Sequence record: PQ471516.1
Length of the DNA stretch: 64,000 nucleotides
Origin: Escherichia phage Turkey5
Reading direction: 5' to 3' (one strand)
Under the pieces are notes generated by a model, which ran no database searches, was not told the origin of the DNA, and saw only the letters and a program-made list of their open reading frames with translations. Positions 12,077 through 30,694 of this stretch are shown piece by piece. Each line of letters starts with the position of its first letter. Position 1 is the first letter of the stretch. The position numbers and the translations under genes are program-made.

Positions 12077-14041
12077 TTATCTTAATGTTACCAATGTTCT
12101 TCCAGCAAACCTTACATCAGGTGAAGAAGGGATGCTAAAGACCACGTTAGTGCCGTTAAACGTCACGCTATCGACCTCAACTCGTGTATACACACCAGTA
12201 CTCACTAGTTCCTGAATCTCTGCTGTAACGATGTTACTGGCTGTTACAGTGAGTGTATAGTAGTCACCACTAAGCACCCATGCAGACGCAGTGAATGGGT
12301 CAGTACGAACAGAACCAGAACCGATTGGAACCCACTGTCCTTGTACTTTTTGCATTGATGTACGTTCGGTGTTGGAGTATGCAATCATACCATCTACACC
12401 TACACTGTTATCAATAGTAGCTAGTACTGGTAATTGAATACCATAACGGTTGAAACGTGTACGAATAGTACCATTATCAAGAATAGTTACGTCAGCGTAA
12501 TTACCCATAGATACTTTTAAATCAGCACTTAGCAATTGAATAGTTGATTGGTTAGCTGTACTTTCTAAAGTAAAGATACCACTTTCCATTAGATTAAGAT
12601 TTTTGAATCTATTACTTGCAGCATTGAATACGGTATTAGCTGCAAAAGTACTTACACCATTGATAGTAACTGCATCAGTATTAGCATCACCTAAAACAGT
12701 ATTACCTTTAACGTTCAGGTTACCACTTGCTGTAATGTTAGTTACGTTCAAACCACCACTAAGAGTAGTTGCACCATCAACTGTCAAATCACCATGAAGT
12801 ACTGTAATACCATTTCTAAATTCAGCTTGAACTTTGTTCATTGAACTTAGTGAGATAATATTACTATCACCACTAATACCTACATTAGTATTAGTTGCAT
12901 TATCAAAACGTATAGTTGGAGTAGCTGCTGGTGTTGTATTTGAATAGTAAAGTACTAATGCACCATTAGTTACACGTACACGTTCAGTTCCATTAGTCGT
13001 GAAACCAATAGTATCATCTTGTGGATGGAAAATACCAGTATTCGGGTCAGACCATTTGGCTGGATCATTACCTGGGTTTGTTATTGGATCAAATGCGTTA
13101 TTGTTAAATGACAATGCTGGAGCAGAGGCTGTACCATATGTTATACCAAAACGACCTGCACCTTTAGTTCCATCGTCATACATGGAATCACCATCACGAC
13201 GAAGACCTTCAACTGCAATGTTATCAAGCATAGTTTGAACAGTACTGGAGTTTTTAACGAACTCACGATTGTTTGCAATCATTACTGTATTATCATATAA
13301 TACTGAAGCCGCTGCAATACTTGCTCTTGATTGACGCAAACGAATGTTTTTAGTATCAGTTATAATAATCCAGTCACCATCAGAAAGTGCGGTTTGGTTC
13401 ATAGGTGAACCACTAGCAAATGCGTTTGTCAAATCAGTGTCTTGTGCAAGATTAACTAAACCAGTGTGACCTGTGGATGGAATTGAAGCAGTTACAATAC
13501 GAGCAAATGCATAACTTACTAGTTTAGAACCAGCAACGATTGGATTGGAATCAACGTAATACATTATTTGAATCCAGTTCCCTTGACCAGTTGGGTTGGT
13601 AGGCGTAAATGTTACTGGACTTGTAGCTGGACTGTTTGCTTCAAAGTGAGCTTGTGCCGCGTCCATGATACCACGAACAACATAATAATCACCTTTAATA
13701 CTTTCAGCAGGGGCTGGAAGTGGGCTTTGTGTTAGTGGAGGATCAATATCATCTTCAATAGGTGAATATGTACCAACGAATTGAAGACCACTGGTAATTG
13801 AATCAGGTAATTGTGAAGTTAATAGTTTACCATTGTTATCTAAGTTAGCAAATCTTCTATATGAAACCGTCCCATCTTCAAAATCAAGTACACCTTCAAA
13901 CGCTTTCCATTCTTGGTTGTATCGAAACATACCAGACCTGATAACATCAGTTGTTTGTTTAGTTGGTGCTTTAGGTAATTCTAGAAAGGATTTACTATCT
14001 ATAATTACACCGCCATCACCTCTAATTCGATTTATACTCAT
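12077..14041 (-). CDS. tail fibre-like / receptor-binding protein (654 aa)
   Basis: Gly/Thr/Ser/Asn-rich beta-type composition and position at the start of the fibre locus; GAGGA RBS. Fibre call is by composition and context only. Confidence 0.5.
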   Translation of the reverse strand: MSINRIRGDGGVIIDSKSFLELPKAPTKQTTDVIRSGMFRYNQEWKAFEGVLDFEDGTVSYRRFANLDNNGKLLTSQLPDSITSGLQFVGTYSPIEDDIDPPLTQSPLPAPAESIKGDYYVVRGIMDAAQAHFEANSPATSPVTFTPTNPTGQGNWIQIMYYVDSNPIVAGSKLVSYAFARIVTASIPSTGHTGLVNLAQDTDLTNAFASGSPMNQTALSDGDWIIITDTKNIRLRQSRASIAAASVLYDNTVMIANNREFVKNSSTVQTMLDNIAVEGLRRDGDSMYDDGTKGAGRFGITYGTASAPALSFNNNAFDPITNPGNDPAKWSDPNTGIFHPQDDTIGFTTNGTERVRVTNGALVLYYSNTTPAATPTIRFDNATNTNVGISGDSNIISLSSMNKVQAEFRNGITVLHGDLTVDGATTLSGGLNVTNITASGNLNVKGNTVLGDANTDAVTINGVSTFAANTVFNAASNRFKNLNLMESGIFTLESTANQSTIQLLSADLKVSMGNYADVTILDNGTIRTRFNRYGIQLPVLATIDNSVGVDGMIAYSNTERTSMQKVQGQWVPIGSGSVRTDPFTASAWVLSGDYYTLTVTASNIVTAEIQELVSTGVYTRVEVDSVTFNGTNVVFSIPSSPDVRFAGRTLVTLR

Positions 14042-14060
14042 GTAATATTTCCTCAGAATA

Positions 14061-14068
14061 GATTTATA
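14061..14068 (-). promoter_or_regulatory. late-promoter-like motif TATAAATC (7/8 match to T4 late TATAAATA) upstream of the 654-aa fibre gene
   Basis: Minus-strand TATATAAATCTATT about 20 nt upstream of ATG 14041. Confidence 0.3.
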
Positions 14069-29552: not shown

Positions 29553-29566
29553 AATCAATACCCCCG

Positions 29567-30694
29567 TTAGATGTTATCGCCAATTGGTTGTATTGGTGAT
29601 TGCCATGCCAAAGTACAGATAATTTTAATTTGACCATAAGCACTGTTGTTTACAGAGTCGTTGAAAATACAAGAGATAATTTCATCTTTATCAGAAACAG
29701 TGTGGTTAACTTCGTTAACAATAAAACGCATTTTACGGTTAATGTCAAAATAATCAACTGGAGCAATTACAGTACCACCAATATCTTCTTGTGCTTCACC
29801 ACCGAAACGAACAAACATTTCGTTAACTGGTAAATCATAAGCTTGTTGTACATCAACATCGATATTAGTAACTAGGTATCCAGCAGGACATGTACCAATA
29901 ACTAGAACGGCGTTAGTCCATGAATGATCAATAGTGTTTACAATAACCAAGGAATCTTTACCTGGAGCACCTGTAGCACCTGGCAGACCTTGTTCACCTT
30001 GAATACCCTGTTTACCACGGAATTCAATACCAGTACTCCACTCTTTGGAAGGCGGGGTTGTGGTGTTTACAATATCAACATAGTATAGTTTACCATCTGT
30101 GGTATTATAGAAGCAGTAGTCTTCAGGAAGGTCAGTAATACTAGGGAATACATCACCAGTACTATCAATATGGAATCGTCCACGTAGACCTTGTGGGCCA
30201 CGGAATTGTACACCATCACTCCAAGTTGCAGTTACTGATTGATAGAAATAAACTTTACCATCAGTTGTATTATAGAATGTATAGTTGTTTACGAGGTTAG
30301 TAGTTGGGAATGTATCACCAGAGCTATCAATATGGAATGATTTACCAGCTTCACCAGTATCACCTTTACCAAATTCTACAACGTTCCAAGTACTATTACT
30401 GTCAGTTGCGGCGTTGGTTTTGAAATATAGCTTACTAGTTCCGTTTGCAAGACTAAGATAGCACCAGCCAAGTTCTTCACCTACTCGGAATGATTCATCT
30501 GGGATTTCAAAACCTATCTCGTTTGGATAAAAGTTTTTACCATTTGTACCATCTCTACCAACAACAAGACCTAGATCTTGAATTGTGTTGTCAGCGTAAG
30601 TTACGATCAAATGTCCAGCAGAGTTGATAACTAAACTCTTTATGCCGGAATTATTGCATGAACTACTAGTCCCATTATTAAATGAAATTGTCAT
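29567..30694 (-). CDS. fibre protein with collagen-like G-X-Y runs and duplicated ~45-aa module (start corrected from 30838)
   Basis: ATG 30694 (MTISFNNG...) has AGGAAA RBS; the track N-terminal 48 aa are hydrophobic junk overlapping the divergent promoter region. Seven-triplet run GKQGIQGEQGLPGATGAPGKD plus shorter G-X-Y runs. Confidence 0.55.
   Translation of the reverse strand: MTISFNNGTSSSCNNSGIKSLVINSAGHLIVTYADNTIQDLGLVVGRDGTNGKNFYPNEIGFEIPDESFRVGEELGWCYLSLANGTSKLYFKTNAATDSNSTWNVVEFGKGDTGEAGKSFHIDSSGDTFPTTNLVNNYTFYNTTDGKVYFYQSVTATWSDGVQFRGPQGLRGRFHIDSTGDVFPSITDLPEDYCFYNTTDGKLYYVDIVNTTTPPSKEWSTGIEFRGKQGIQGEQGLPGATGAPGKDSLVIVNTIDHSWTNAVLVIGTCPAGYLVTNIDVDVQQAYDLPVNEMFVRFGGEAQEDIGGTVIAPVDYFDINRKMRFIVNEVNHTVSDKDEIISCIFNDSVNNSAYGQIKIICTLAWQSPIQPIGDNI

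Follow-up and report, generated by a model that had tools for sequence, protein, structure and literature searches.

A block of long, fibre-like genes lies beside the baseplate genes of Escherichia phage Turkey5, and it raises the question of how many receptor-binding devices this phage builds and which of them set its host range. The block covers positions 12077-30694 of the window, the 64,000-nucleotide (nt) stretch of record PQ471516.1 analysed here. The original prediction had read it as six consecutive minus-strand fibre or spike genes, forming a possibly branched adsorption apparatus with several receptor specificities. The locus is the tail-fibre/tailspike block of a 121Q-like (Asteriusvirus) jumbo coliphage, and it is conserved across the phage group. 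We are fairly confident in reading the region as an Asteriusvirus module of peripheral fibres and spikes, in which seven late genes lie beside baseplate and tail genes. Two of them, g654 and g375, are flanking core virion proteins of every RaK2-like phage, with a size-variable cassette between them.

Escherichia phage vB_EcoM_JNE01, a 355-kb Asteriusvirus (121Q/PBECO4-like, a RaK2-related jumbo myovirus), matched positions 12077-30838 with 98.6% identity, the whole region being covered. Its annotation has 'hypothetical protein' for every gene in the block. The remaining Asteriusviruses aligned to just 35-48% of the same region, at ~76-77% identity, while the adjoining baseplate region (30700-55000) was covered over 100% of its length in other Asteriusviruses, at ~81% identity. 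Low coverage at the locus, combined with full coverage of its flank, marks the block as variable within a structural region that is otherwise conserved.

Gene content of the locus

The genes and the hairpins between them are listed below, with protein lengths in amino acids (aa). Gene starts were set from ribosome-binding sites and from the annotations in relatives.

12046-12073, bidirectional: terminator hairpin between the thymidylate synthase gene (plus strand) and g654 (minus strand); 12-bp stem followed by a T-run; fold -16.6 kcal/mol, z = -5.3
12077-14041, minus: g654, core virion protein, 654 aa; open reading frame (ORF) with a start corrected by its ribosome-binding site
14097-14118, minus: terminator hairpin after g260; fold -10.9 kcal/mol, z = -3.8
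14133-14915, minus: g260, DUF4376 protein, 260 aa; domain at aa 137-231
14960-14988, minus: terminator hairpin after g2120; fold -15.8 kcal/mol, z = -4.1
15000-21362, minus: g2120, giant fibre type A, 2120 aa; phrog_4549
21468-21490, minus: terminator hairpin after g1628; fold -12.8 kcal/mol, z = -3.9
21501-26387, minus: g1628, giant fibre type B, 1628 aa; phrog_4549
26465-26492, minus: terminator hairpin after g298; 10-bp stem followed by T7; fold -15.2 kcal/mol, z = -5.2
26500-27396, minus: g298, small virion protein, 298 aa; phrog_10468
27411-29552, minus: g713, predicted colanidase tailspike, 713 aa; PDB 6E0V/6E0W, phrog_6117
29567-30694, minus: g375, core short fibre, 375 aa; ORF with collagen-like stalk and jelly-roll head

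The outer coordinates first given for the locus, 12077 and 30694, were exact. The count of six was not: there are seven genes, and the six on the earlier list are not consecutive. The overlooked one is g260, between g654 and the giants.

Conservation across RaK2-like phages

The order td, 654-aa protein, DUF4376 protein, giant, protein of ~290-300 aa, 375-aa protein and baseplate genes is shared by Mimasvirus (CBB), Eneladusvirus (BF) and Asteriusvirus. It was the same in 121Q, phAPEC6, Ecwhy_1, vB_Ec-M-J, CBB and BF, and the fibre modules of these RaK2-like phages (121Q gp569-574, phAPEC6 gp253-gp258, CBB_224-228 and Serratia phage BF 0220-0227) also keep the same orientation, from thymidylate synthase to the baseplate genes, and orthologues of every gene were found among them. 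In BF, the 654-aa homologue and the DUF4376 gene are separated by three additional small genes. At the syntenic site of RaK2 there are only the 654-aa homologue, a docking-domain stub and the 375-aa homologue. The cassette enclosed by the core genes is ~15.5 kb long in this phage, against 9.7 kb for 121Q, ~6.5 kb for CBB and 0.5 kb for RaK2. Two giants are encoded here, as in Ecwhy_1, vB_Ec-M-J and JNE01, but one in 121Q, phAPEC6, CBB and BF, and a third 170-aa repeat in g2120 sets this genome apart from the other RaK2-like modules. The locus is therefore a genus-standard fibre module, already sequenced and, in sister genomes, partly annotated as tail fibres or colanidase. New here are the overlooked chaperone-like gene, the split into core and variable parts, the portable docking domain and the two lineages of giant paralogues.

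Conservation differed strongly between the genes. Compared with other Asteriusviruses, identity was 88-97% for the neighbouring core genes, 85-88% for the colanidase, 79-80% for both g654 and g375, 76-78% for g298, 60-63% for g260 and 47-67% for the giants. The lowest values, in the giants and g260, mark the fibre and its presumed chaperone as a fast-evolving pair. At the other end, g654 and g375 were present in all 71 related phage genomes (71/71), with 45-81% identity whatever the host. Together with g298, they are 50-71% identical across phages of E. coli, Klebsiella, Pectobacterium, Serratia and other hosts. This cross-host conservation speaks against the idea that g654, g298 and g375 are receptor-specificity modules and for core structural parts. 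Judged from their sequences, the three behave as core virion parts and not as host-range determinants.

The N-terminal (aa 1-340) and C-terminal (aa 534-654) domains of g654 are highly conserved. Its middle (aa ~350-530) is variable and weakly resembles the repeats of the giants; no fold could be assigned to the protein. A conserved N-terminus is also found in g375, together with three beta modules, each after 3 G-X-Y triplets, and a C-terminal jelly-roll head (aa ~249-375). The predicted collagen-like fibre was confirmed in g375, but it is short: the stalk has 7 uninterrupted G-X-Y triplets at aa 227-247 (nt 29954-30016), plus three runs of 3. The stalk glycines are invariant in 46 homologues. 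The Pfam Collagen family scored 14.9 bits, below its threshold of 27.2, and the homologue P0169 has a long PF01391 region. A profile search of the PDB with the g375 alignment gave nothing significant. We regard g375 as a collagen-stalked jelly-roll fibre, presumably trimeric.

Mass spectrometry of CBB virions found orthologues of five of the seven proteins, CBB_224 to CBB_228 (PMC5259590). These were the orthologues of g654 (CBB_224, 22 peptides), g260 (CBB_225, the DUF4376 protein, 68.5% coverage), the giants (CBB_226, 1553 aa, 10 peptides), g298 (CBB_227, 5 peptides) and g375 (CBB_228, 13 peptides) (PMC5259590). The proteins detected in phAPEC6 virions include the giant gp256 and, with 65.6% coverage, the 375-aa gp253 (PMC7247149). 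The objection that such proteins might be absent from virions is thus answered in the relatives CBB and phAPEC6; the colanidase and the present phage lie outside that answer.

Giant fibres and their probable chaperone

The two giant repeat fibres of the original prediction were borne out by composition and by tandem repeats. Both proteins are rich in Thr, Gly, Ala, Val and Ser, and in both a long degenerate repeat shaft is followed by a unique end domain of ~140 aa. In g2120, an N-terminal attachment region (aa 1-140) precedes three tandem repeats of ~170 aa (aa 141-650, nt 19413-20942; 70-88% identical), the degenerate repeat shaft and the C-terminal domain (aa ~1980-2120). In g1628, there are two ~170-aa repeats (aa 141-480, nt 24948-25967), a degenerate shaft and a C-terminal domain of its own. 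The repeats were mapped by protein fragment BLAST, their divergence at the DNA level being too great; a DNA tandem-repeat finder gave only four minor arrays.

Both giants belong to phrog_4549, 'tail fiber' (E = 6e-219 for g2120 and E = 1e-185 for g1628). Residues 540-849 of g2120 matched the phiTE tail fibre chain 9CUY_g (793 aa) with E = 1e-24. This match spans only residues 194-519 of the chain; the N-terminus of the giants, unmatched in the 9CUY chain, does not resemble the phiTE baseplate-binding region. The C-terminal 166 aa of g2120 recurred at 30-40% identity in tail fibres of 396 phage records, mostly rV5-like. A precomputed Pfam hit to PF26209 (Phage_phiTE_241_C) was present on a protein of the same length, 2120 aa, at the syntenic position of a related ENA metagenome contig. 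In shaft and C-terminal domain, the giants are therefore homologous to the long tail fibre of phiTE and the rV5-like phages (Vequintavirinae), and they have a DUF4376 gene directly downstream, as in known fibre-chaperone pairs (PMC10579305). They differ from it by being 2-2.7 times longer, by their 170-aa tandem repeats, by a dissimilar N-terminus and by the duplication of the gene. PhiTE is a flagellotropic myophage, and its long tail fibre was predicted as an extended beta-helix of 512 Å (PMC11972413). We also considered the label 'long tail fiber proximal subunit' (gp34), used in 121Q, Ecwhy_1 and CBB, and rejected it, as gp34 homology was not detectable: there was no gp34 chain among the PDB hits at E <= 1, and no Pfam or NCBIfam family was hit by the giants.

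T4 gp34 extends by 0.54 Å per residue. At 0.54-0.65 Å per residue, the giants would be ~85-140 nm long if extended, the higher value assuming that the 793-aa 9CUY chain is the phiTE long tail fibre of 512 Å (PMC11972413).

Overall, g2120 and g1628 are 42% identical, with 81% over the first 100 aa and 53-56% between their C-terminal domains. The orthologues of g2120 are 121Q gp571 and Ecwhy_1 gp208 (70-74% identity in the C-terminal domain). The orthologue of g1628 is Ecwhy_1 gp207 (74-75% in the C-terminal domain), and this type is absent from 121Q and phAPEC6. The giants are old paralogues. Their near-identical N-termini and diverged tips fit a shared attachment site with different distal ends, and these different distal domains make more than one binding specificity plausible.

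Relative to JNE01, g2120 is a hot spot of divergence, with 166 differing codons (119 synonymous and 47 non-synonymous) between flanks that are 99.8-100% identical. The differences lie in patches (aa 101-600, 1001-1200 and 1601-1700), accompanied by a 5-nt frame slip that is compensated. Such a pattern resembles tracts left by recombination or gene conversion among the repeats. Plus-strand ORFs of up to 438 aa lie antisense inside the giants, e.g. at 15169-16107 and 22612-23928. Most likely, these ORFs are not genes but artefacts that arise from the skewed codon usage of Thr/Gly/Ala/Val-rich sequence.

The start of g260 lies 84 nt downstream of g2120 on the same strand, an arrangement that was the same in all relatives examined. 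Pfam DUF4376 scored 23.3 bits in g260 (gathering cut-off 25) and 34.5-61.1 bits in its orthologues from 121Q, vB_Ec-M-J, CBB and BF. A comparison with PDB sequences gave no match for g260. DUF4376 proteins are known as tail-fibre chaperones ('transient chaperone caps'; PMC10579305) from the Alteromonas phages V22 and A5, where their genes come directly after those of the fibres, and a DUF4376 protein is the proposed chaperone of Campylobacter phage F341 (PMC10877375). By analogy, g260 is a probable tail-fibre chaperone or cap, and not a fibre.

One contig of a related phage showed a rearranged form of this module. On contig 465 (68 kb) of Logan SRR30543657, the whole cassette is deleted, and positions 8001-8813 hold a 270-aa chimera in its place. 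It joins the first ~110 aa of a g375 homologue to the C-terminal DUF4376 part of a g260 homologue, and it lies between an o165 homologue and a 657-aa g654 homologue. Either a natural deletion mutant or an artefact of assembly could explain it.

Putative docking domain and predicted colanidase tailspike

Two otherwise different proteins of the locus start alike. The N-terminus of g298 is similar to residues 1-104 of g713 (E = 1e-17), and these residues also match 'virion structural proteins' of the RaK2 clade. In g713, this docking domain comprises aa 1-~100 (nt 29253-29552); in g298, it comprises aa 1-110 (nt 27067-27396) and is followed by a C-terminal part of ~190 aa. Its opening motif is invariant in the clade. 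Orthologues of g298 are 52-78% identical clade-wide, and ORF061w of RaK2 and K64-1 (115 aa) is the docking domain alone. No match to g298 was found among PDB sequences.

An exhaustive search of 1.84 billion representative proteins found the docking N-terminus on proteins whose lengths range from 113 to 1366 aa, and always from residue 1. Distinct Pfam domains are present in four of the larger proteins: Peptidase_S74, a right-handed beta-helix (Beta_helix), a BNR sialidase-like domain (BNR_2) and Sortilin/CBM. Two neighbouring proteins in another multi-spike locus, the beta-helix one of these four and one of 780 aa with Peptidase_S74, both have the new Pfam family PF27114 (Phage_tail_beta). On Logan SRR18476386 contig 53 (120 kb), positions 1-10118 hold five consecutive genes, for proteins of 780, 902, 199, 919 and 705 aa, two of which carry this docking domain, before a Peptidase_S74 fibre and before a beta-helix spike. 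A word-indexed homologue search with the docking-domain alignment returned just seven short fragments. We read the N-terminal domain of ~65-110 aa as a putative portable docking module, which may be used outside the RaK2 clade as well. The two protein pairs with common N-terminal docking domains, g298 with g713 and the giants with each other, suggest that the partners dock in parallel, at sites of the same kind.

Beyond its docking domain, g713 is a predicted enzyme. Its residues 102-714 aligned end to end with residues 14-623 of the phi92 gp150 chain (PDB 6E0V/6E0W; phmmer E = 1e-239), with roughly 65-70% identity as judged by eye, so that the predicted beta-helix tailspike stands. The protein is assigned to phrog_6117 (E = 1e-253), and part of its body resembles WcaM (E = 4.5e-29). 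Justusliebigvirus colanidases are 58% identical to g713, from aa 90 on. Colanic acid hydrolysis by gp150 is reported by Xu 2025, as cited in PMC13450770. By homology, g713 is a predicted colanic-acid depolymerase tailspike. It shares the beta-helix body and the predicted substrate, colanic acid, with phi92 gp150, but its first ~100 residues are the RaK2-clade docking domain instead. The phi92-type N-terminal attachment region is absent from g713, where phi92-like homology starts only at aa ~90-102. With its N-terminus swapped relative to phi92, the spike would plug into a different virion. On the docking-module reading, the colanidase would have arisen by fusion of that module to a spike body related to the phi92-like ones.

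Pfam, phrog and PDB searches found a depolymerase body in this locus only in g713. Among the RaK2-like phages compared, the colanidase is restricted to Asteriusvirus. The gene is intact here. In JNE01 and in two independent ENA metagenome assemblies, it has a 1-nt insertion (AACGGAGGAG to AACGGACGGAG) at gene nt ~360, close to position 29190 and ~60 nt downstream of the point where the docking domain joins the enzyme body, which yields ORFs of 141 aa and 588 aa. The colanidase gene of vB_Ec-M-J is also in two pieces (351 + 360 aa). The colanidase spike appears to have been lost or uncoupled repeatedly.

Transcription signals and neighbouring genes

Intergenic hairpins with U-runs follow g298, g1628, g2120, g260 and g654 (z of -3.8 to -5.3), and none of 200 shuffles folded as well. 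Terminator-like sites as such were no more frequent in the region than chance predicts (11, with 10.1 expected), so we hold the terminators to be real because of their intergenic placement and stability. In this respect, the internal terminators of the original prediction were confirmed. The gaps between g375 and g713 and between g713 and g298 are 14 nt each, with ribosome-binding sites and no hairpin. Probably, g375, g713 and g298 form one transcript, ended by the hairpin after g298.

The late-promoter-like motifs claimed for the locus could not be upheld: the T4-type motif TATAAATA had 2 copies, with 6.1 expected, and neither lies in the locus. Sigma-70-like sites were also fewer than expected (34 vs 55.5). 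Another candidate, CTAAATATATA, occurs only upstream of both giants and is not enriched; we rejected it as a promoter motif and take it for a by-product of the duplication, since the giants are paralogous.

The genes next to the block encode a gp15-like sheath completion protein, a baseplate wedge and a hub-lysozyme. A NUDIX hydrolase gene (33074-33538, minus strand) and a ClpA-like AAA+ ATPase gene (36493-38778, plus strand) are embedded in these tail and baseplate genes, an arrangement kept in RaK2, CBB and BF. Between the ATPase gene and a gene for a 1153-aa baseplate wedge lies an ORF of 3346 aa (38813-48853, minus strand), which matches phAPEC6 gp245 by size and synteny (382 kDa, found in virions by mass spectrometry).

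Proposed adsorption mechanism and alternative readings

A working model of adsorption can be outlined as follows. The giants, which would span ~90-140 nm at a phiTE-like extension, would attach by their near-identical N-termini and make the first reversible contact with two different distal domains. Their target may be the flagellum, since a related Asteriusvirus, SHEFM2K, is reported as flagellotropic (Alsharif 2025, as cited in PMC11895373) and the giants are linked to the phiTE fibre; it may equally be a surface glycan or protein. The DUF4376 protein would fold the tip of the giant fibres and remain bound to it. Through their shared N-terminal domain of ~100 aa, g713 and g298 would dock on the same kind of virion site, as inferred from sequence. 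The colanidase would cut colanic-acid exopolysaccharide and thereby let the particle reach the cell surface, with g375 and g654 as invariant baseplate-proximal fibres or adaptors. The five terminators would split the block into five transcription units, probably setting the relative amounts of the proteins. In the large E. coli receptor-screen preprint that lists the Asteriusvirus G17, the main text gives no receptor for this phage.

Several points weigh against this picture. Imaging has yet to place any protein of the locus on an Asteriusvirus virion, and all structure work used monomer models; trimer states and docking partners are inferred. Electron micrographs show short baseplate fibres, 28.6 nm in CBB, a length that the giants seem to exceed. 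The DUF4376 score of g260 itself is just below the Pfam cut-off, and g654 has neither a recognisable fold nor a proven role. The colanidase is split by frameshifts in JNE01, the two metagenome assemblies and vB_Ec-M-J, and thus dispensable at least sometimes.

Could g654, g298 and g375 be structural parts of the baseplate, the tail or a decoration, with a beta-rich, fibre-like composition but no part in adsorption? The locus would then encode a single spike and a single type of fibre plus chaperone, instead of six receptor-binding devices. We lean somewhat away from this possibility, but it deserves serious attention. It agrees with the cross-host conservation (71% for g375 in RaK2, 50-54% for g654 in CBB and BF, 52-55% for g298), with the near constant length of g375 across homologues and with the likeness of its head to capsid cement proteins. 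RaK2 also keeps the g654 and g375 genes even though its adsorption fibres are encoded elsewhere (PMC10253068). The 65.6% peptide coverage of phAPEC6 gp253 suggests a high copy number, but peptide coverage is a weak guide to copy number. On the other side, a collagen stalk with a jelly-roll head, as in g375, and fibre repeats, as in g654, are typical of exposed fibres. A conserved protein may also be a secondary receptor-binding protein, for RaK2 gp098 is 100% identical in RaK2 and K64-1 and still needed for infection (PMC10253068). A different doubt concerns the giants, which might not be baseplate fibres at all, but the 'hairy' whiskers, ~120 nm long, that CBB, phAPEC6 and fEgEco12 bear on the contractile sheath and possibly on the capsid. 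The terminal globule would then be the DUF4376 protein or the C-terminal domain, the function would be entanglement or first capture, e.g. of flagella, and the six baseplate fibres would be made of much shorter proteins. In CBB, the hairs measure 119 +/- 10 nm and end in tiny globules, the baseplate fibres measure 28.6 nm, and the authors left the hair gene unassigned (PMC5259590). CBB_226 would reach roughly 84-101 nm if extended, at 0.54-0.65 Å per residue. Hairs were reported in phAPEC6 (PMC7247149) and fEgEco12 (PMC13070987), both of which have giant genes, the RaK2 site has no giant gene, and according to the CBB paper, whiskers were not described in other RaK2-like phages (PMC5259590). 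That the giant and the DUF4376 protein were both found in virions also fits. We nevertheless think it rather unlikely that the giants are hairs. In shaft and C-terminal domain, they share homology with fibres that rV5-like phages, phiTE among them, attach to the baseplate, and their genes sit in a baseplate-proximal module. GAP32 has a giant gene, but hairs are unreported for it (PMC5259590). The hairs of phAPEC6 emerge from three sheath rings and the capsid, which is hard to square with a single N-terminal attachment domain, and the 'hairs' may themselves be long baseplate fibres stowed along the sheath.

The branched apparatus of the original prediction fared worse. In the sense of RaK2, CBA120 and phiKp24, branching means that one protein bears others on dedicated domains, and such an arrangement is improbable here. 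It would have precedent in the clade, as RaK2 and K64-1 build branched fibres (PMC10253068), and there are the two protein pairs with common N-terminal domains. No branching domain of the CBA120/RaK2 type was found: the locus proteins lack N-terminal D1, D2 and XD domains of the CBA120 tailspike protein (TSP)-like kind, and the locus has no cluster of several depolymerase spikes, g713 being the single depolymerase. The branched complex of RaK2 and K64-1 (gp098, gp526-gp534) comes from the same clade, and in both systems several tail proteins are combined with a depolymerase as the primary tool against polysaccharide. It is built from other genes at another locus, with CBA120-type N-terminal domains and seven depolymerases (PMC10253068), none of which is found here. 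There is no orthology between the present locus and the RaK2 gp526-534 cluster, and none of the cluster's genes occurs at the syntenic site in RaK2. We keep to a peripheral module in which fibres and spike would dock side by side. Virion presence in relatives and a predicted colanidase fit an adsorption role, and the two different giant tips make more than one specificity plausible; as specificity modules, the 654-, 298- and 375-aa proteins drop out.

Significance

Asteriusviruses have repeatedly been isolated as therapy candidates against pathogenic E. coli, and the public names of these proteins in other records are misleading (T4 gp34-like, FliK, colanic acid biosynthesis). Read gene by gene, the locus has an invariant core of g654, g298 and g375. 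The host-range determinants are likely the two giants and their DUF4376 partner. The predicted colanidase would be an accessory capsule-clearing enzyme; its gene is often broken by frameshifts. If the giants were the hairs, these would be flexible capture lines, perhaps for flagella, and two paralogues would mean two kinds of hair. The hair genes have been unassigned since 2017, and the suggested link to the giants makes this morphological puzzle directly testable. For those who engineer or compare these phages, the reading shows where to look, and the portable docking domain of ~65-110 aa would offer a practical handle for spike swapping.

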